A DNA stretch of 64,000 nt, from assembly GCA_029262415.1 (NCBI GenBank), contig JAJCZL010000037.1, forward strand, positions 14,504 through 78,503, in the 5' to 3' direction. The notes beneath the pieces are model-generated. The model had not been told where the DNA came from and searched no databases. It saw nothing but the letters and a program-made list of their open reading frames with translations. This document shows positions 32,361 through 60,125 of the stretch, piece by piece. A program made the translations under genes and the position numbers. The stretch's first letter is position 1. The number at the start of each line of letters is the position of its first letter. The stretch is from Deltaproteobacteria bacterium (lineage in GTDB: Bacteria; Desulfobacterota; Binatia; UBA1149; JAJCZL01).

Positions 32361-33113
32361 ATGGACCTCGCCCTAAAAGACAAAACCGCGATCGTCACCG
32401 GTGGTGCGTCGGGCATCGGACTGTGCACGGCGCGTTTTCTGCAACGCGAAGGTGTCCGCGTCCTAATCGCCGACATCCAAGAAGAAACGCTCAAGGAGGC
32501 CGCGGCCACGCTCAACCAGGGTGAGGTCGAGACATTCGCGCTCGACGTGCGCCACTACGACGCGTGCGAGGCTATGGTACGGCACGGCATCGAGAACTTC
32601 GGCCACGTTGACATCCTTATCAACTCGGCGGGCATCAGCGGCCCCGCGCTGCTCTTCGTCGAGACCGGGCCGGAGGATTGGCACGACCTTATTGAGATCA
32701 ACCTGATCGGCGTAATGAACTGCTGTCGTGCCGTGACTGAGCACATGATCGAGCGAGGCTCAGGCAACATCGTTACGCTCGCCAGCGAAGCCGGCAAGGG
32801 CAACGAAAAACGCATCGTCGCCTATGGCGCGACCAAAGGCGGCGTCATCTCGTTTACCCGCGGGCTCGCAATCGAGCTCGGCCGCCACAACATCAAAGTC
32901 AACTGTGTCTGTCCCGGTGTGACACACAGCCCGATGACGGCCTACCTAAAGGACAGTCAAGAACTCGAAAAACGCTTCGCCTCGGCATACCCGCTGGGTC
33001 GGCTGGGAATACCCGAAGACATCGCGCCGATGATCGTGTTCTTGTGTTCTGACCGCACCTCGTGGGTGACCGGCCAGGCCATCAGCGTCAGTGGAGGCTT
33101 CGGGCGCAGCTGA
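32361..33113 (+). CDS. Short-chain dehydrogenase/reductase
   Basis: TGGASGIG, NSAGI, YGATK, VNCVCPG, PLGRLG.PEDIA, TGQAISVSGG. Confidence 0.95.
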   Translation: MDLALKDKTAIVTGGASGIGLCTARFLQREGVRVLIADIQEETLKEAAATLNQGEVETFALDVRHYDACEAMVRHGIENFGHVDILINSAGISGPALLFVETGPEDWHDLIEINLIGVMNCCRAVTEHMIERGSGNIVTLASEAGKGNEKRIVAYGATKGGVISFTRGLAIELGRHNIKVNCVCPGVTHSPMTAYLKDSQELEKRFASAYPLGRLGIPEDIAPMIVFLCSDRTSWVTGQAISVSGGFGRS

Positions 33114-33247: not shown

Positions 33248-35500
33248 ATGGACCTCATCGCCAACGTACTGATCGAGACCGCGCGGATCCTCTACGAGGG
33301 TTCGCTGTTTATTCTACTTGGGTTTCTGATCGCCGGGCTGTTGCACGAGTTCATGCCGACCAATGCGATCGCGCGCCACCTCGGCCGCGACGACACGAGC
33401 TCGGTCACGCTGGCCGCGCTATTCGGTGCGCCTATCCCGTTGTGTTCCTGCGGAGTGCTGCCCGCCGCTGCGGCATTACGGAATAAAGGCGCGAGCCGCT
33501 CTGCGCTGCTGTCTTTCCTGATCTCGACACCGGAGACGGGAGTAGACTCTATCGCGCTGACCTATGGGTTGCTCGGCCCGGTCATGGCTATCGTACGACC
33601 GGTTGTCGCGGTCATCACCGCGATCGTCGCCGGCCTGGTCTCGATCCTCCTGCCTGAAACCGACGAGGATTTGCTCGACGAACGACTCGGCGAGGCTGAG
33701 GATTCATGCCACCAAAACCACACCCACGCGCCAGGCGAGGCCGACCACGAACACCCGCAGGGCGGCGCAAGCTACAGCGGCGGCAGCGGCCTCAGGCCCT
33801 CTGCGAACCCAACCGGCACGCCCGCCGACCGCACACGTCGGGTACTCAACTACGGCTTCGGTACGCTGCTTGACGAGATCGCGTTCTGGATGGCGCTCGG
33901 CATCGGCCTGACCGGTGTGCTCGCCGCACTGCTGCCCAGCGACTTCTTTTCAGCTGCGCTCGGGTTAGACCGCGGCATCATGCCGATGTTGTTGATGATC
34001 GTCGCTGGGTTGCCTTTGTACCTGTGCGCAAGCGCATCCACGCCGGTGGCAGCCGCTTTGATCGCGAAAGGCCTTTCGCCCGGTGCCGCGCTGGTATTCC
34101 TACTGGTTGGCCCGGCAACCAACGCCGCAACTATCACGGTGGTCGGAAAACTGTTGGGCTCACGCAGACTCAAGGTTTACATGGCCAGCATTATCGGCGT
34201 GAGCCTCGCAGCCGGGATTGCCGTGGATGCATTCGGCGGCGAAGCCGTACGCGCAACCGCTTTCTCGCGCACCGTGACGCCCGGCTATGACTTGCTGTCG
34301 ATCCTCAAACTCGGTGCCGCTTTCGTATTCTCCGCCCTGCTGTGGACGAGCCTGCGGCGCATCGGACTTTCAGCGGGATTATCCGACCTGCGTGGACAAG
34401 CCGTGCGTATGGGAAGCACCCTCAGCGGGCTACGGCTGCGTGACCTCATACGTCCGCCGGTTCTCGCCGCAACCGCCGTGCTCATAGTCCCTTTCGCGTT
34501 GCCGAGGTTCGCGCTCGTCGTCGAACCCGGACAACGCGGGGTCGTTCAACGCTTCGGCCACGTAACGGCCGGTGATCTGGCCCCGGGGCTGCACTGGCAT
34601 CTGCCACCACCACTGGGTCGCGGAACCGCTGTCGACGTTGACCGGATCCGCGCAGTACCCATCGGCTTCGAAGAAACTGAGCGTGGCGGTCGCCTGGTGC
34701 TCGAAGCCGAGGCTTACTATCTAACCGCGGACGAGAACCTCATCGACATCCGTTCTGTGGTCACCTACCAGGTCAGCGACCCGGTCCGCGTCGCACTGGG
34801 CACTGAAGATCCGGATCTGCTGGTCCGCGGCGTTGCACGACGTGCACTGGTGGGCGTGGTCAGCACGCGTAGCATAGACGGCCTGTACACCAGTGGTCGC
34901 CGCGAAGCCGAGCTCGCATACCGCGACGCGATAGAAAACTATGTGCGCATCCGCCGGTTGGGTATCCGAATCAAGGATGCACGCTTTCTCGACGCGCATG
35001 CACCGGCAGCAGTCCACGACGCGTTCCGCGACATTGCAAGCGCCCTCGAAGACAGAGAAACCGACATCTACGTTGCGCGTGGCTATGCTCTCGAGCGTGA
35101 AGCCGAGGCCTCGGGCGAATCCGTTCAGCGCAAACTCGCAGCCGACGGCGACTCCGTAGCCATGCGACTCCGCGCCGCCGCGCGTGCGCGGGCGTTTACC
35201 GCGCTAGAGGGCGCGCGTGCCGGGAACGCGGTAACGACCGACTATAGATTGAGTCTTGAATCAATCGACAGGACTTTGGCTGGTACTCCGTTGTACATTC
35301 ACGACCGTCGCTACCACGCCACCGACATCGACCTGTGGCTCGGCTTCGGAGCGCTAACCCCACCCTCAGGTTCCCCACTGGCAGTTTTTCCGATCACCTC
35401 CGACTTGACACGCGATAGAAACTCGGACGACGCCGTGCCGAACAACGCAGTACCCAATCGCAGCAATACCAACGGCCCGGCGCCGACTGATAAGGAATGA
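33248..35500 (+). CDS. DUF318/SO_0444-type metal permease fused to a C-terminal HflK-like SPFH domain
   Basis: PIPLCSCGVLP, FLISTPETGVDS, His-rich loop, PLYLCASASTPVAA..GLSPGAALVFLLVGPATN; from about 34508 EPGQRGVVQRFG..PGLHWHLPPP...YLTADENLIDI...VHDAFRDIASALED. Confidence 0.9.
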   Translation: MDLIANVLIETARILYEGSLFILLGFLIAGLLHEFMPTNAIARHLGRDDTSSVTLAALFGAPIPLCSCGVLPAAAALRNKGASRSALLSFLISTPETGVDSIALTYGLLGPVMAIVRPVVAVITAIVAGLVSILLPETDEDLLDERLGEAEDSCHQNHTHAPGEADHEHPQGGASYSGGSGLRPSANPTGTPADRTRRVLNYGFGTLLDEIAFWMALGIGLTGVLAALLPSDFFSAALGLDRGIMPMLLMIVAGLPLYLCASASTPVAAALIAKGLSPGAALVFLLVGPATNAATITVVGKLLGSRRLKVYMASIIGVSLAAGIAVDAFGGEAVRATAFSRTVTPGYDLLSILKLGAAFVFSALLWTSLRRIGLSAGLSDLRGQAVRMGSTLSGLRLRDLIRPPVLAATAVLIVPFALPRFALVVEPGQRGVVQRFGHVTAGDLAPGLHWHLPPPLGRGTAVDVDRIRAVPIGFEETERGGRLVLEAEAYYLTADENLIDIRSVVTYQVSDPVRVALGTEDPDLLVRGVARRALVGVVSTRSIDGLYTSGRREAELAYRDAIENYVRIRRLGIRIKDARFLDAHAPAAVHDAFRDIASALEDRETDIYVARGYALEREAEASGESVQRKLAADGDSVAMRLRAAARARAFTALEGARAGNAVTTDYRLSLESIDRTLAGTPLYIHDRRYHATDIDLWLGFGALTPPSGSPLAVFPITSDLTRDRNSDDAVPNNAVPNRSNTNGPAPTDKE

Positions 35501-35504
35501 ACGA

Positions 35505-36422
35505 ATGAGCCCAACCGCAAAGATCTTTCTCGGGATTGCCGTGCTTGCGGGTAGTCTGCTCGCGGCGACCTGCGTCGTTATCGTCGATGAGACCGAACAG
35601 GTGGTGGTCACCCAGTTCGGCAAACCGACCGCTGTGCACACAACCGCCGGACTGTACGCCAAGCTACCTACGCCGTTCCAGCGTGTGACGCGCATGGACA
35701 AGCGGCTTCTATTGACCGAAACAGACGAGAACGAGTTGCTCACGGCCGACAAGAAAAACGTGGTGGTCTCCGCGTATATGTCCTGGCGCATTGCCGACCC
35801 ACTCGGCTACCTCTCCGCACTTCGTACCCGCGAGGCGGCGGAGAACCGACTTCGCGCGCTCATACAATCGGAGTTGGGAAGTGCGCTCGGCGATGTCGAG
35901 TTCGCCAGGCTGGTATCCGCTGATGGAGACGGCTCCGGCCTGCGCGCGTTGGCCGCAAAGGTCGAAGCGAAGTGCACCGAAACAGCCGACCAGAACTTCG
36001 GCATCGCGGTGACCGACTTCGGGATCACGCGCCTCAACTTCCCTTCACAGAACCTGCAAAGCGTGTTCGGTCGGATGCGGGCTGAGCGCTCACAGATAGC
36101 CCGATCCTTCCGCAGCGAGGGCAAAGCCGAGGCGCAGAAGATCCGCTCGCAGGCCGATCGCGAGCGCGTCGAAACGCTCGCCGCCGCCGAGGCCGAAGCA
36201 ACGCAACTGCGTGGCGAGGGTGAAGCAGAGGCCGCCAAGATCTACGCCGAAGCCTATGCCGGACACCAAGACTTCTACCGTTTCCTGCGTACACTGGAGA
36301 CCTACGAGAAAGTCCTCGGCGAACAGACCACATTGATCTTACCGAGCGATACCCCGCTTTTCGGCTTATTGACGACCGGCAAGGTCGGCAGGACTCCACC
36401 CTTGCCTGGACGCGACAAATAG
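35505..36422 (+). CDS. hflC: HflC-like SPFH protein
   Basis: VDETEQVVVTQFGKP, LTADKKNVVV..WRIADP, VFGRMRAER..A..FRSEG, LRGEGEAEAAKIYAEAY, FYRFLRTLETY. Confidence 0.9.
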   Translation: MSPTAKIFLGIAVLAGSLLAATCVVIVDETEQVVVTQFGKPTAVHTTAGLYAKLPTPFQRVTRMDKRLLLTETDENELLTADKKNVVVSAYMSWRIADPLGYLSALRTREAAENRLRALIQSELGSALGDVEFARLVSADGDGSGLRALAAKVEAKCTETADQNFGIAVTDFGITRLNFPSQNLQSVFGRMRAERSQIARSFRSEGKAEAQKIRSQADRERVETLAAAEAEATQLRGEGEAEAAKIYAEAYAGHQDFYRFLRTLETYEKVLGEQTTLILPSDTPLFGLLTTGKVGRTPPLPGRDK

Positions 36423-36429
36423 GGAACGA

Positions 36430-37338
36430 GTGCAAGGACTTCTCTCATACGTCGGGCGGGCGCTCGCAGCGACCTTGCTGCTTACTTACGTCGCAAGCGG
36501 GCTCTACCAGGTCGCTGCAGACGAAAGTGCAGTCGCGCTTCGCTTGGGTCGCGTCGTCGGCCGCGATGTGTTGCCGGGGATGCACTGGAATCCACCTTGG
36601 CCTTTTGGCCGCGTAGTCATCGCGCAAACCGCGACCAGCTTCATCATGCCGATCGGCTACCGGTTCCAACCACGTCCCGATGTGTCACCAATCTCAGATA
36701 TGTGGCTGACCGGCGACACCAATGTCATCACTGCACGCATGATTGTGCAGTACCGGATCAAGAGCCTGACCGACTTCGTGCTTTCGAATGATTCGCCACG
36801 CGAGCTGGTTCGCCGCACCGGAGAACGGGCACTCGCCGAGCTTCTCGCCGGTGAAGGTGTCGATGGCGTACTGACAACCCGCCGCAACACTATTCCGACA
36901 GCCGTTCGGGAACGCGTTCAGGAAGTTCTCGACCAGCTGGAGGCAGGGATCGACATCCAGTCGGTCAACATCGAAGAGTTCGCCCCACCGGTCCAGGGTG
37001 GCGTGCGCGGCGCGTTCCAGGACGTTCAGAACGCGAAGTCGGACCGCGAACGCCTCATCCACGAAGCACGCGCGCAGGCCGCCCAGTCTGTGGCCGAGGC
37101 CAAGGGCGAGGCCGACCGCATCGTCAACGCCGCAGCCGGCAGCAAACGCGCGCGCACCGAAGAGGCCGGCGGACGTAGCCGCCGCTTCGCGGCCCTTGCC
37201 GCTCAGCACGCCACCTCGCCGGCCTTGACCGAAGAACGGTTGTTCTTGGAGACGATGGAGAAAGTTCTCGGACGTACGCGTAACTTTGTCGTCGAACCCG
37301 GTCCTGGCGGAAGCGTCAAACTCCGGGTGCTGCGATGA
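36430..37338 (+). CDS. hflK: HflK-like SPFH protein
   Basis: SGLYQV..DESAV..RLGR..PGMHWNPPWPF, LTGDTNVI..VQYRI, VRGAFQDVQNA..DRER, TEERLFLETMEKVL. Confidence 0.88.
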   Translation: MQGLLSYVGRALAATLLLTYVASGLYQVAADESAVALRLGRVVGRDVLPGMHWNPPWPFGRVVIAQTATSFIMPIGYRFQPRPDVSPISDMWLTGDTNVITARMIVQYRIKSLTDFVLSNDSPRELVRRTGERALAELLAGEGVDGVLTTRRNTIPTAVRERVQEVLDQLEAGIDIQSVNIEEFAPPVQGGVRGAFQDVQNAKSDRERLIHEARAQAAQSVAEAKGEADRIVNAAAGSKRARTEEAGGRSRRFAALAAQHATSPALTEERLFLETMEKVLGRTRNFVVEPGPGGSVKLRVLR

Positions 37339-38405
37339 GGCTTCCTTTTGTGCGCAGCGTCCCGTTCGCGCGCTGCGCCGCTGCCTCAACCACCATCGCG
37401 TCAGTTACCGCAGTACTTGCATTGCTCGGCGGCTCAGCGTGCAACCCGGACAGCCTACCGCGTAGCGATGATCTGCGGTCCGGCCATCAGGGGCTCAGTA
37501 TAGTCGTCACTATCCCTGTACTTGCGTTCATAGTGCGCGAAGTTGCCGGTGATCGCGGCAGCGTACGTTCGCTGCTGCCACCCGGCGCAAGCCCCCACAC
37601 TTTTGAACCGACGATCGGCGACGTGCGCGCGGTCGACGCGGCCGATCTACTGATCTCGGTGGGCGGAGGCTTCGATGACTGGGCGGTGCGTTTTGCCGAG
37701 ACCGGCATGAGTTCACCGAAGAGGGATTTGCGCAGCATGCGCATACTCGATTTGAGTGGCTTGCGACTACTCGCCGCCGAGCACGTGCACGGGCGCGACG
37801 AACATCATCAGCCCGACGAACTCAGGCACCACCAGGGTCCCAAAAGAGTGCCCGGCGCCGCCTCCGACCCACACGTTTGGCTCGACCCGGTGCAGGTTCG
37901 TGACATCATCGTGCCTGCTGTTGCGCTCCGGCTTGCACGCTTGGACCCCACCCACGCCCATGCGTATCACTCTCGTGCCGCCGACACGGTAACGATGCTG
38001 ACCGAGCTGGACAAGTCGATCCGAACCGAGCTGGCGCGTGCACCGCGCCGTGAATACCTGGCGTTTCACAACGGCTGGCGCTATTTCACGGCGCGCTACG
38101 ACCTGCGCGAGATCGGCGTTATCGAGGAAGCGGCAGGCGAAGAACCGACACCGCGAGAGATAGCAGCGTTGATCCGCGGCGCACGCAAAGCCCAGGCTTC
38201 TGCGATTTTGATCGAACCCCAGTTGGGTGCACGTATGGCCGACACCGTCGCAGCAGAGTTTGGCGGAACCACGGTCACGGTCGATCCGCTCGGCGATCCA
38301 CGCGCCCCCGAGCGCTCGGGATACCGAGTCTTGATGGAATACAACGCGCGTGCCTTCGCACGCGCCCTCGGCGCGGACCAAAGCGCTGGAGACACACGGG
38401 GATGA
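37335..38405 (+). CDS. Zn/Mn ABC transporter substrate-binding lipoprotein (ZnuA-like)
   Basis: Lipobox GSAC; PGASPHTFEP, His-rich loop, DPHVWLDP, FHNGWRYF, IEPQ, VDPLG. Confidence 0.92.
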   Translation: MRLPFVRSVPFARCAAASTTIASVTAVLALLGGSACNPDSLPRSDDLRSGHQGLSIVVTIPVLAFIVREVAGDRGSVRSLLPPGASPHTFEPTIGDVRAVDAADLLISVGGGFDDWAVRFAETGMSSPKRDLRSMRILDLSGLRLLAAEHVHGRDEHHQPDELRHHQGPKRVPGAASDPHVWLDPVQVRDIIVPAVALRLARLDPTHAHAYHSRAADTVTMLTELDKSIRTELARAPRREYLAFHNGWRYFTARYDLREIGVIEEAAGEEPTPREIAALIRGARKAQASAILIEPQLGARMADTVAAEFGGTTVTVDPLGDPRAPERSGYRVLMEYNARAFARALGADQSAGDTRG

Positions 38406-39253
38406 GCCGTGAAAACCCTGATACGGTCGTCGAGGTCCGCGACCTCAGTGTGCAACGCAACGGCATCGATGTACTCGAAGACATCACGTTCTCTGTCCGC
38501 CACGGTCAGTTCATCGGCTTGGTCGGTCCAAACGGTGCAGGCAAAACTACTCTACTGAAGGCGCTCCTCGGCTTGATCCCCGTTACGCGCGGGAGCATCC
38601 GCGTACTCGGTGCGCCGCCGGGCGACCGCGCCTACGACGCCCACGGCATCGGCTACGTGCCGCAACGGCAAGAAATCGGGCGTAATTTCCCCGCGACCGT
38701 GGCCGACATCGTCATGATGGGCCGGTTCTGCTGCATGGGACCGCTCTCCTTTCCGCGCAAGAAAGACTGGCTACACGTCAAGCGTACACTCGCGCTAGTC
38801 GGCCTCGAACACCTCGCCGAGCGCAGCATCGGGCAACTCTCAGGCGGTGAACTGCGCCGCGTAACCTTGGCGCAGGCCTTGTGCGCGAGCACGCGTTTGC
38901 TGGTACTCGATGAACCGACCATCGGGCTGGACTTGCCGGCAGAGCACGAGTTTTACGCGCTGCTTGCTAAGCTCAAAGCTGACCTCGGACTCACGATCAT
39001 CGCGGTCTCCCACGACTTGGTTGCACTGGGCGGACGGGCGGATGAACTCATCTGCATCAACCGGCGCATGCACATCCACGGAAACCCTGAAGACGTAGTC
39101 CACAGCCACGCCATCCGTGAGGCTTACAGTTGCGAGTTCAGCTTCCTGGCCGGCGAGCTTGCGCATCATGAAGGCGTACGTCCGCACGACGGGCCCGCAC
39201 ACAGCCACGACGAGGACACGCCCGGGCGGGACGACGGACATGGCGACAAGTAA
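38402..39253 (+). CDS. Zn/Mn ABC transporter ATP-binding subunit (ZnuC-like)
   Basis: GPNGAGKTT, IGYVPQR, LSGGELRRV, LVLDEPT, VSHD; His-rich C-terminal tail. Confidence 0.93.
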   Translation: MSRENPDTVVEVRDLSVQRNGIDVLEDITFSVRHGQFIGLVGPNGAGKTTLLKALLGLIPVTRGSIRVLGAPPGDRAYDAHGIGYVPQRQEIGRNFPATVADIVMMGRFCCMGPLSFPRKKDWLHVKRTLALVGLEHLAERSIGQLSGGELRRVTLAQALCASTRLLVLDEPTIGLDLPAEHEFYALLAKLKADLGLTIIAVSHDLVALGGRADELICINRRMHIHGNPEDVVHSHAIREAYSCEFSFLAGELAHHEGVRPHDGPAHSHDEDTPGRDDGHGDK

Positions 39254-40047
39254 TGTTTGAGTTCGAGTTCATGCAGCGGGCGATGACGGCGGCGGTGGTC
39301 ATCGGACTCCTTTGCGGGCTGCTGGGGTTCTTCGTTGTCTTGCGTCGGCTTGCGTTTATCGGCGTCGGAATCTCCCACTCCGCGATCGGAGGCGTAGCGA
39401 TAGGATTGCTGCTGGGCATCGCCCCGATGCTCACCGCAGCGGTATTTGCGATCGCCGTCGCACTCGGGATTGCGCGGGTTTCGAAGCGCGGAGGGCTGAG
39501 TGAAGACGCGGTCATCGGGGTATTTTTTTCGGGGTCGATGGCGCTCGGCGTGGTGTTGTTCAGCCTACGACGCGGGTTTCGCCAAGACCTCTTCGGTTAC
39601 CTATTCGGCAACGTATTGACGATCTCATCTGCTGAGCTCGTGCTGCTCACCATAGTTGCCGCTGTGGTGGCGCTGGTGTTGGTGCTGCTGTTCAAGGAAC
39701 TACTGTTCATCTCGTACGACGAAGAACTCGCGCGCGCGTACGGACGACCGGTCGACTTACTCAACTCCGCTCTGCTGGTACTGCTCGCCGTCACCATCAT
39801 CATCGGCGTGCGCCTGGTTGGAGTATTGCTCATCGAGGCGTTACTCGTCGTGCCCGCCGCGACGGCCTCACTGTGGACCGATCGGTTTCGTGCGCAGGTG
39901 GCGCTGTCGGCGTTCTTGGGCGCGGGTTGCGGGGCGCTGGGGTTGGCGGCGGCTTACGGGTTGGATATTGCGGCGGGGGGAGCGATGGTGCTGGTCGGCA
40001 TCATCACGTTCTTTACCTCGCTGGTTCTGCGGCGCGCTACTGTTTAG
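39253..40047 (+). CDS. Zn/Mn ABC transporter permease (ZnuB-like)
   Basis: FMQRA, GFFVVLRRLAFIG..ISHSA, EDAVIG, YLFGNVL, VGVLLIEALLVVPAA. Confidence 0.93.
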   Translation: MFEFEFMQRAMTAAVVIGLLCGLLGFFVVLRRLAFIGVGISHSAIGGVAIGLLLGIAPMLTAAVFAIAVALGIARVSKRGGLSEDAVIGVFFSGSMALGVVLFSLRRGFRQDLFGYLFGNVLTISSAELVLLTIVAAVVALVLVLLFKELLFISYDEELARAYGRPVDLLNSALLVLLAVTIIIGVRLVGVLLIEALLVVPAATASLWTDRFRAQVALSAFLGAGCGALGLAAAYGLDIAAGGAMVLVGIITFFTSLVLRRATV

Positions 40048-59202: not shown

Positions 59203-59619
59203 TTAGATCTCGCTGAGCCCTTGGGTGAATCGGCCGGCATGCGACTTCTCGGCCTTCGCAAGGGTCTCGAACCAGTCGGCGATCTCATCGAAGCCTTCTT
59301 CACGCGCGGTCTTGGCCATGCCGGGGTACATGTCGGTGTACTCGTGGGTCTCACCCGCAATCGCAGCCTTCAGGTTGGCTTCGGTATCACCGATCGGGAG
59401 ATCGGTGGCAGGATCGCCGACCTTCTTAAGATAGTCGAGGTGGCCGTGGGCATGACCGGTCTCGCCCTCCGCGGTGTCGCGGAACAAACCGGCAACATCG
59501 GGGAAGCCCTCAACGTCAGCCTGCTTCGCAAAGTAAAGGTAACGGCGGTTGGCTTGCGATTCGCCGGCGAAAGCAGCTTTCAAATTATTGTGGGTCTCGC
59601 TTCCTTTTAGTTCAGGCAT
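59203..59619 (-). CDS. rbr: Short rubrerythrin (no rubredoxin domain)
   Basis: [42 protein letters not shown]. Confidence 0.95.
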
Positions 59620-60091
59620 CGTTTGTCTCCTTGGTTTTGCAGCGCGGGCAGAGCCCGTAGCCGGTAACTTTGATTTCTTGTACTTCGAACCCGCCCGACT
59701 CTAAACGATCGACACCGAGAGCGTCGTAGGCCGCGCTATAAACGTCGGTCACACTTGCGCATGACTTGCAGATCAGGTGGTGGTGCTTGTGTGGGTTGGC
59801 ATCGAAACGAGCGTGGCTGGATGCAGTCGCGACGCCGTCGACAAGGCCTTTTTCCACAAACAGACTGAGATTACGGTAGACGGTCGCAAGCGATATTCGC
59901 GGAAGACGCTCTTTGACGCGTCCGTGCAGCACTTCGGCTGAGGGATGGTCTTTGCTGGATGTAAGCGCCGCGAATATGACGCGCCTCTGCGGGGTGTCGG
60001 CGAGCCCTACATCCCTGCAGCGCCGTGCGAATTCTGCAGCCGCGGGTACGGATGCTTGGTCGCCTAATATGGAGTCTACGTTCTCACTCAT
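59612..60091 (-). CDS. perR: Fur-family regulator, PerR-like
   Basis: TPQRRVI, DHPSAE, ISLATVYRNL, RFDAN..KHHHLICKSC..VTD, GLCPRC; heads a rubrerythrin operon. Confidence 0.85.
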   Translation of the reverse strand: MSENVDSILGDQASVPAAAEFARRCRDVGLADTPQRRVIFAALTSSKDHPSAEVLHGRVKERLPRISLATVYRNLSLFVEKGLVDGVATASSHARFDANPHKHHHLICKSCASVTDVYSAAYDALGVDRLESGGFEVQEIKVTGYGLCPRCKTKETNDA

Positions 60092-60125
60092 GGCTGGGAC
60101 TCCCGGCCCTGCGGCCACGGTTACG

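Follow-up and report, generated by a model that had tools for sequence, protein, structure and literature searches.

The 64-kb window analysed here, a stretch of contig JAJCZL010000037.1 from a Deltaproteobacteria bacterium, carries on its plus strand a six-gene operon (33248 to 40047) in which a metal permease of the SO_0444 family is fused to an HflK-like SPFH protein (K1) and followed by an HflC-like SPFH protein (C), a free HflK-like SPFH protein (K2) and a ZnuABC-type importer. Its conserved core is permease::K1-C-K2. We give about even chances to the reading that this module is a membrane scaffold of HflK/HflC type, dedicated to the fused permease as its built-in client, a reading adopted because of the gene fusion, the obligate partner genes and the separate clades of the SPFH proteins. 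What bacterial SPFH cages do beyond FtsH control is in large part a question of their clients. A client fused to its scaffold, with two dedicated partner subunits and kept over at least 10 phyla, offers a genetically defined system for the effects of an HflK/HflC-type ring on a transporter, and the module is experimentally tractable because cultured carriers exist.

The operon and its conserved core

The open reading frame (ORF) listing of the window gives six tightly packed or overlapping genes, all on the plus strand. Gene 1 (33248..35500, 750 aa) encodes the permease fused to K1 and matches PF03773, NF033936 and PF01145. It is followed by C (gene 2, 35505..36422, 305 aa, TIGR01932), which has an N-terminal membrane helix, and by K2 (gene 3, 36430..37338, 302 aa, TIGR01933), which has a GTG start and about 12 residues before its membrane helix. 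Gene 4 (37335..38405, 356 aa; PF01297, 4.4e-66) encodes a ZnuA-type periplasmic metal-binding protein with a His-rich loop, gene 5 (38402..39253, 283 aa; PF00005, 4.4e-29) an ABC ATPase with a His-rich C-terminal tail, and gene 6 (39253..40047, 264 aa; PF00950, 1.4e-66) an ABC-3 family metal ABC permease. Gaps of 4 nt and 7 nt separate genes 1 and 2 and genes 2 and 3, respectively, the K2 stop overlaps the znuA start in an ATGA at 37335, znuA and the ATPase gene overlap in an ATGA at 38402, and the ATPase and ABC permease genes overlap in a TAATG at 39253. His-rich stretches contain 5 His per 30 aa in the permease loop, 6 per 30 in ZnuA and 6 per 30 in the ATPase tail (residues 251-280). An earlier note on the window had described the six co-oriented genes, their gaps and overlaps, and the His-rich stretches in these three places; all of its coordinates and junctions were reproduced, and the His counts bear it out. 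The six-gene order is not due to chance, because the same order recurs in one same-family relative and three same-order relatives.

A word-index protein search with gene 1 scored 7,997 candidates, 3,112 of them at E<=0.001, and the best 120 of these 3,112 matches all carry PF03773 together with PF01145. Related loci were sampled from contigs of one genome per species, where 589 of 599 pattern matches encode a relative; the best 80, ranked by likeness to the query and representing no census, were kept and typed by tblastn of the window proteins and by their reading frames. They comprise 49 fused and 31 unfused permeases. C follows the fusion in 45/49 fused loci, and C then K2 in 43/49; among the exceptions to the latter order, five are cut by contig ends (L013, L014, L038, L050, L086) and one, L077, has a broken fusion frame and still carries C and K2. 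The arrangement permease::K1-C-K2 is present in 43/43 fused loci with enough downstream DNA, and an SPFH neighbour was found beside 0/31 unfused permeases. By record titles, the carriers span at least 10 phyla and include Myxococcota/'Deltaproteobacteria', Binatia, Eiseniibacteriota, Acidobacteriota and Gemmatimonadota, as well as Planctomycetota, Rokuibacteriota, Tectimicrobiota, and Alpha- and Betaproteobacteria. Cultured carriers are Bradyrhizobium australiense WSM 1791 (L031) and B. erythrophlei GAS478 (L033).

Searching with the K1 part, with the fused proteins outside the length range, returned no stand-alone K1; the matches were fragments on 1-2.5 kb contigs with 40-51% identity, followed by canonical HflK at about 30%. 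Module-type C (E<=1e-62) occurred in 3 of 301 evenly sampled genomes of the phylum, with a fused permease just upstream in all three. The earlier note had suggested a neighbourhood survey of HflC homologues for a clade that always sits with metal transporters, and this sample upholds the tie to the fused permease, while the tie to ZnuABC extends to the order level only. Among 72,556 plasmid records a single match was found, to an unfused permease, and the module is essentially absent from plasmids.

The permease-domain tree was built from 80 rows, L068 being omitted for an internal stop. It places 24 unfused permeases in one clade (support 93), and six rows typed as unfused nest within the fused forms, one of which (L076) is cut by a contig end. 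A single fused clade, with L076 added to the group after the tree had been seen, was rejected by the approximately unbiased (AU) test (p 9.5e-11).

K1, C and K2 beside canonical HflK and HflC

C, which is flanked by K1 and K2, scores 190.2 bits on TIGR01932 (hflC), above the equivalog cut-off of 134.4, and K2 scores 177.6 bits on TIGR01933 (hflK), above the cut-off of 159.4; K1 reaches 115.1 bits on TIGR01933, under the same cut-off. K1 aligns with the E. coli HflK chain 7vhp_E over residues 54-346 (E 1.9e-18) and has E. coli HflK 7vhq_E as its best Foldseek match (1.1e-12), C aligns with E. coli HflC 7vhp_G (8.8e-36, coverage to residue 328), and K2 with E. coli HflK (2e-32, coverage of residues 84-349). 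According to the available part of PMC12048511, the E. coli cage model spans residues 79-355 of HflK and 1-329 of HflC, and the alignments of K1, C and K2 span this whole cage-forming region. The reported HflK-FtsH contact Arg191, cited in that source, could not be placed on the alignment, in which Arg was counted at 185 and 193, and this line was dropped. The Pfam domain HflK_N was found neither in K2 nor in the genome's own canonical HflK, and its absence from K2 is uninformative because that canonical HflK lacks it too.

The assembly of the window's genome (3.9 Mb, 83 contigs, 96.8% complete) holds eight Band_7 matches, namely the operon's three, two adjacent ones on contig C57, one of stomatin type on C76 and two partial ones. 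The C57 pair is a canonical hflK-hflC (352 and 289 aa, overlapping genes, 283.5 and 234.3 bits on the equivalog models). The operon does not, therefore, hold the genome's only hflK/hflC, which favours the reading of the earlier note, where a second canonical pair had been proposed as a check. That note had also reported neither ftsH nor hflX in the window, and both were located on contig C1, which carries the genome's sole FtsH match (Peptidase_M41) and HflX. Other carriers show the same pattern of an additional pair: all five genomes searched have a second adjacent SPFH pair besides the module, and four of these pairs were taken to represent canonical HflK/HflC in the tree. A search for FtsH gave one full-length match apiece in five more carrier genomes. 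Since ftsH is single in the window genome and in these five, there is no module-specific FtsH paralogue, and ftsH was found within about 10 kb of the permease in 0/80 related loci.

A quick IQ-TREE analysis of SPFH proteins used 97 rows. Of the 43 complete module sets, 26 hand-picked for spread supplied K1, C and K2, and 17 were omitted for size; the other rows were three additional C copies from upstream of the module, five pairs of canonical K and C, and six stomatin-type outgroups. The tree splits into an HflC side (support 99) and an HflK side (100). Module C and its extra copies form a clade (99) apart from canonical HflC. On the other side, canonical HflK forms a clade (97) to which K2 is sister (95 together, 84 for K2 alone), and K1 is a third group (64) outside both K2 and canonical HflK. 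The K1, C and K2 subtrees show the same sub-clades, and the three genes were therefore inherited together. By sequence, there is support for reading the module triplet as a dedicated assembly that is distinct from the canonical FtsH modulators. The earlier note had proposed as much, and the separate clades, the canonical pair elsewhere in the genome and the lack of ftsH in the 80 loci speak on its side.

The same data bear on a role as FtsH adaptor, in which the K1-C-K2 ring would house the cell's single FtsH and hand over to it the tethered permease, perhaps the importer too, for controlled degradation, such that transporter levels follow metal status. The equivalog scores of K2 and C, the grouping of K2 with canonical HflK, the alignment of all three proteins across the cage region and the retention of FtsH in every carrier genome checked would suit such an adaptor. 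Yet a separate canonical hflK-hflC pair stands beside the module in 6/6 carrier genomes examined, neither ftsH nor hflX is linked to the module in the window and no ftsH lies in the 80 loci, no extra FtsH paralogue was found, and K1 stays below the hflK cut-off. We consider the adaptor role unlikely.

The fused permease and its zinc-transport neighbours

In gene 1, Pfam recognises ArsP_1 (PF03773, formerly DUF318) at residues 12-326 (5.9e-42) and Band_7 at residues 424-613, and residues 13-333 match NF033936, 'SO_0444 family Cu/Zn efflux transporter', with 358.7 bits, above the cut-off of 300. Homologues align starting at residue 1. The permease domain (residues 1-335; 33248..34252) contains the invariant residues C66-S67-C68, P95-E96-T97, C260 and T265-P266, conserved in 78/78 rows of one alignment and 68/68 of the other. 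An AlphaFold2 (AF2) model of full gene 1, made from the 68-row alignment, has a mean predicted local distance difference test score (pLDDT) of 83.3 and a predicted template modelling score (pTM) of 0.65. In this model the permease is helical, with helices broken at the CSC (66-68), PET (95-97), C260 and GPATN motifs. The permease is followed by an extra transmembrane (TM) helix (349-372) and an Arg-rich helix (374-394), which link it to the HflK-type anchor (34283..34441). The K1 part (residues 399-684; 34442..35299) then shows an HflK-type membrane helix (403-421), the SPFH domain and a 73-residue coiled-coil helix, before a disordered tail. Between the two permease halves lies an acidic, His-rich loop (residues 138-200; 33659..33847), disordered with pLDDT <50 at residues 157-182.

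The orientation of gene 1 in the membrane can be approached through its charges. The His-rich loop is flanked by R195, R197 and R198 and would be cytoplasmic by the positive-inside rule. Seven Arg lie in the linker between residues 370 and 398, a region weakly conserved in the 68-row alignment, and the extra helix and the Arg-rich helix may together act as a topology adaptor. With the two CSC/C260 helix pairs taken as re-entrant hairpins, all four positive-charge clusters in gene 1 (78-84, 195-198, 301-309 and 370-398) would lie on the same side. The predicted topology places the N-terminus outside, the His-rich loop in the cytoplasm and the SPFH domain in the periplasm, and this sidedness would agree with the N-in, single-helix topology of C and K2. 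Modelled alone by AF2 (33248-34282), the permease domain reached a pLDDT of 86.2 and a pTM of 0.83. A comparison with solved structures gave no match at E<=0.001; the weak matches were to carriers of the elevator type (E 0.023 for Pho90, 0.17-0.21 for VcINDY and ArsB) and serve as a lead only. The SO_0444/ArsP_1 permease family appears to be without an experimental structure.

The downstream importer has the composition of a ZnuABC system, with PF01297, PF00005 and PF00950 in genes 4-6, three aligned His and a His-rich loop. The best solved relative of gene 4 is the zinc-specific Synechocystis ZnuA (1pq4_A, 2.4e-31), in which the His-rich loop occupies the same place. The histidines of the PHT, DPH and FH motifs, which we take to be the zinc ligands of ZnuA, are aligned between the two. 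Gene 4 scores below the NCBIfam equivalog cut-offs for ZnuA, AztC and MntC, and the best NCBIfam match of gene 6 is AztB at 198.1 bits, under the cut-off of 280. The residues before the Cys of gene 4 are G-S-A, unlike a typical lipobox, and the earlier note's 'lipoprotein' is a putative label.

By tblastn, ZnuABC follows K2 in 7/49 fused loci (L010, L011, L012, L015, L016, L017, L030) and precedes the module in L051. The fusion was found in 6/40 relatives of the window genome. Among six regions fetched from these relatives, ZnuABC follows K2 in four, from the same-family genome G411 and the same-order genomes G413, G417 and G421, and is missing from G448 and from the second copy in G411; the G421 region belongs to the L012 genome, already among the seven. 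A fused copy in G431 is cut by a contig end and stands outside the six regions compared. Two ZnuABC lineages occupy the position after K2, one with 47-72% identity to the window's (L161, L166, L012) and one with 24-40% (L162, L163, L010, L011). Genome G411 carries two module copies, L161 with ZnuABC and a fusion 60% identical to the window's, and the divergent L165 (39%) without ZnuABC.

Flanking genes were surveyed by a rough ORF call with Pfam tallies, covering 109 upstream and 116 downstream ORFs. A ZIP zinc transporter stands immediately upstream in 10 of the 109, in Planctomycetota and Gemmatimonadota, and its stop often overlaps the start of the fused permease (L034, L041, L043, L047, L049 and others); ZnuA accounts for 6 of the 116 downstream ORFs. 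Five upstream ORFs belong to the acetamidase/formamidase family (PF03069) and three match Band_7, among them the additional HflC-like gene of loci of Bradyrhizobium type described below. A ZIP gene also precedes a 541-aa permease in L069 (5813-8250), which has a 215-aa C-terminal extension without a Pfam match and no SPFH partners. Loci of Bradyrhizobium or Burkholderiales type (L031 7726-9853; L026, L033, L055, L077, L086) have a fourth SPFH gene and a PF03069 gene before the module, the former an extra HflC-like copy with its own clade in the SPFH tree (100). An ArsR-type regulator lies beside the permease in 15/31 unfused and 0/49 fused loci, and none adjoins the window operon. Near relatives have in common, upstream of the module, only a GCTATnTT-like element that lies about 50 bp ahead of the start and resembles a -10 box; a sigma-70 scan found nothing.

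The ZnuABC wiring is a trait of the window's lineage, and the link to zinc uptake recurs in a second, unrelated form, the ZIP genes. The module's context points to zinc homeostasis over classical metal-stress efflux, since importers adjoin it, ArsR-type regulators are lacking and plasmids are essentially without it. In the earlier note the client of the SPFH assembly was a metal transporter. This stands for the permease, which the gene fusion names, and does not stand for ZnuABC as a constant partner, found after the module in 7/49 loci and before it in 1/49. The automatic label 'Cu/Zn efflux transporter' is likewise called into question for proteins sitting with zinc importers.

Two other explanations of this context were weighed. 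In the first, the module would be no more than an efflux pump for Cu/Zn detoxification, with the scaffold as an accessory, and its ZnuABC or ZIP neighbours would be separate functions sharing a transcript in some lineages. A permease that passes the NF033936 cut-off and keeps the CSC motif accords with such a pump, as do about 30/49 fused loci without a metal gene nearby; so does the requirement for the unfused members SO_0444 and Shew_3410 under Zn/Cu stress, as given in the available parts of PMC3219624 and bioRxiv 10.1101/072470. Against it, the ArsR-type regulator found in 15/31 unfused loci is missing from the fused ones, start/stop coupling to the module is seen for importer genes of two unrelated kinds (ZnuABC and ZIP), and the plasmid records hold a single, unfused match. 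On this balance a plain pump is improbable.

The earlier note had modelled the system as a channelling chamber, a periplasm-facing cage that concentrates zinc or passes it between the permease and ZnuA/ZnuBC. Translational coupling of K2 to znuA, a module-ZnuABC order kept in order-level relatives, the second, independent link to ZIP importers and the predicted periplasmic position of the SPFH domains can all be read in its favour. However, ZnuABC adjoins the module in only 8/49 fused loci, an efflux-type permease feeding an importer would run a futile cycle, there is no sign that ZnuA enters or binds the cage, and most carriers have no adjacent binding protein, which leaves channelling very unlikely.

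Further genes of the window and its genome were recorded beside the operon. A short-chain dehydrogenase (SDR) gene (32361-33113, plus strand) lies 134 bp upstream of the operon; a similar SDR gene ends about 20 bp before the permease in L012, and SDR genes occur near four fused loci, which may be chance. Contig C67 (L157 1363-3260) of the window genome holds a second ZnuA-like gene (PF01297, 177.8 bits) and an ABC-3-like permease gene after a 434-aa ORF, and no ZIP gene was found in this genome. At 59203-60118 on the minus strand of the window, a Fur-family gene (168 aa, PF01475 97.3 bits) and a rubrerythrin-like ORF (138 aa) overlap at the start of the latter. This pair looks like a PerR-type peroxide unit, not Zur, the rubrerythrin assignment being made by sequence alone.

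Proposed assembly and comparison with known systems

In the preferred reading of a dedicated scaffold for the fused permease, the three SPFH proteins would most likely resemble E. coli HflK/HflC in building a ring or cage at the periplasmic side of the inner membrane, with K and C subunits in alternation. The K positions would be shared by free K2 and permease-bearing K1, and the K1:K2 ratio would therefore set the number of permeases per ring. Several Cys/Glu-lined SO_0444-type permeases could thereby be held in one scaffolded membrane patch, with the extra helix and the Arg-rich cytoplasmic linker fitting the periplasmic C-terminus of the permease to the in-to-out HflK anchor. The scaffold would set the clustering, the activity or gating, or the lifetime and turnover of the permease locally. 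The whole operon would act as a zinc-homeostasis unit, in which uptake and permease would be made together because the Zn-type ZnuABC is translationally coupled to the module. Export from the cytoplasm, as a relief or proofreading valve beside the importer, is slightly favoured over uptake, because the permease belongs to a family named for efflux and mutants of unfused members are Zn/Cu-sensitive.

Several observations weigh against this scaffold reading. Co-assembly of K1, C and K2 is a proposal drawn from homology and synteny only, the NCBI equivalog models for FtsH modulators accept K2 and C, and canonical HflK is the sister group of K2, which leaves room for an FtsH link. Fused permeases are not one clade by the AU test, which implies repeated loss or gain of the fusion; most simply, it would be old and have been lost several times since. 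The ZnuABC linkage is limited to one lineage, the order-level relatives of the window, and the rough flank survey left about 30/49 fused loci without a recognisable metal gene nearby. The family name, Cu/Zn efflux, is at odds with the importer neighbours. A search for a Zur-like site upstream of the module in the window and the 49 loci, using a gamma-proteobacterial Zur-like palindrome with <=2 mismatches, gave no consistent match.

A more far-reaching version, which we regard as a long shot, is an SPFH nanocompartment for metal handling. In it, a closed K/C cage with permeases in its wall would enclose a private periplasmic or membrane space beside zinc importers, as one of a class of SPFH trios wired to unrelated transporters (fused SO_0444 permeases, P1B ATPases, ABC systems). 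Such a nanocompartment, if real, could supply zinc to exported proteins in scarcity or act as a push-pull zinc valve.

A literature search found no description of a permease-SPFH fusion or of a permease::K1-C-K2 operon. One close parallel is E. coli HflK/HflC-FtsH (7vhp, 7wi3, 9cz2, 9paw), which is alike in its adjacent genes, N-terminal membrane helix, SPFH domain and long coiled coil. The module differs in having three subunits instead of two, with one K placed behind a permease of about 340 residues and an adaptor helix, in its clades separate from the canonical pair of the same genome, and in its lack of hflX/ftsH linkage. For the permease, the reference is SO_0444 of Shewanella oneidensis, a member of the same NF033936 family, whose hallmark CSC motif (bioRxiv 10.1101/2022.07.06.499078, in its available part) is invariant here. 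SO_0444 is unfused and lies beside a ZntR-type regulator in the account available from PMC3219624, whereas the window permease is fused to an SPFH protein, lacks a neighbouring regulator of this type and shares an operon with an importer.

The nearest precedent, by analogy only, is the P. aeruginosa locus PA2435-PA2439, which likewise has three tandem HflK/HflC-like genes beside a zinc-related transporter. In the available part of PMC4542158, PA2437-PA2439 are three HflC/HflK-family genes adjoining hmtA, which encodes a P-type ATPase; they lie near a putative Zur site, and Zn depletion or a znuA mutation induces them 9-14 fold (Table 2), and the available part of PMC11761036 has the proteins raised in low Zn. 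This published locus matches the K-C-K triplets beside P-type ATPases that the earlier note had mentioned. A 2026 study names the three PaFlo5-7 and, in its available part, describes only mild phenotypes of the triple deletion in the assays reported, with no zinc-limitation assay among them (PMC13086221). In place of the fused SO_0444 permease, the P. aeruginosa locus has a P1B ATPase as a protein of its own. Trios of hmtA type were sought with protein C in 400 genomes of the class of G006, a tally that includes G049, G151, G306 and G318 (flagged unpublished and used for no other result). A match was present in 362/400, nearly all a single canonical HflC, and the six regions fetched from this search held no such trio, all being plain K-C pairs.

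Eukaryotic stomatin offers a further parallel, since in the aquaporin-1/stomatin complex (9zd2) an SPFH oligomer also engages a membrane transport protein, and 9zd2_E is among the Foldseek matches of the gene 1 model; there the association is non-covalent, the ring homo-oligomeric and the clients unrelated. Lastly, the ATPase and ABC-3 permease of Synechocystis ZnuABC (1pq4) are matched by genes 5 and 6, and the window importer differs from that system by its coupling to the SPFH module.

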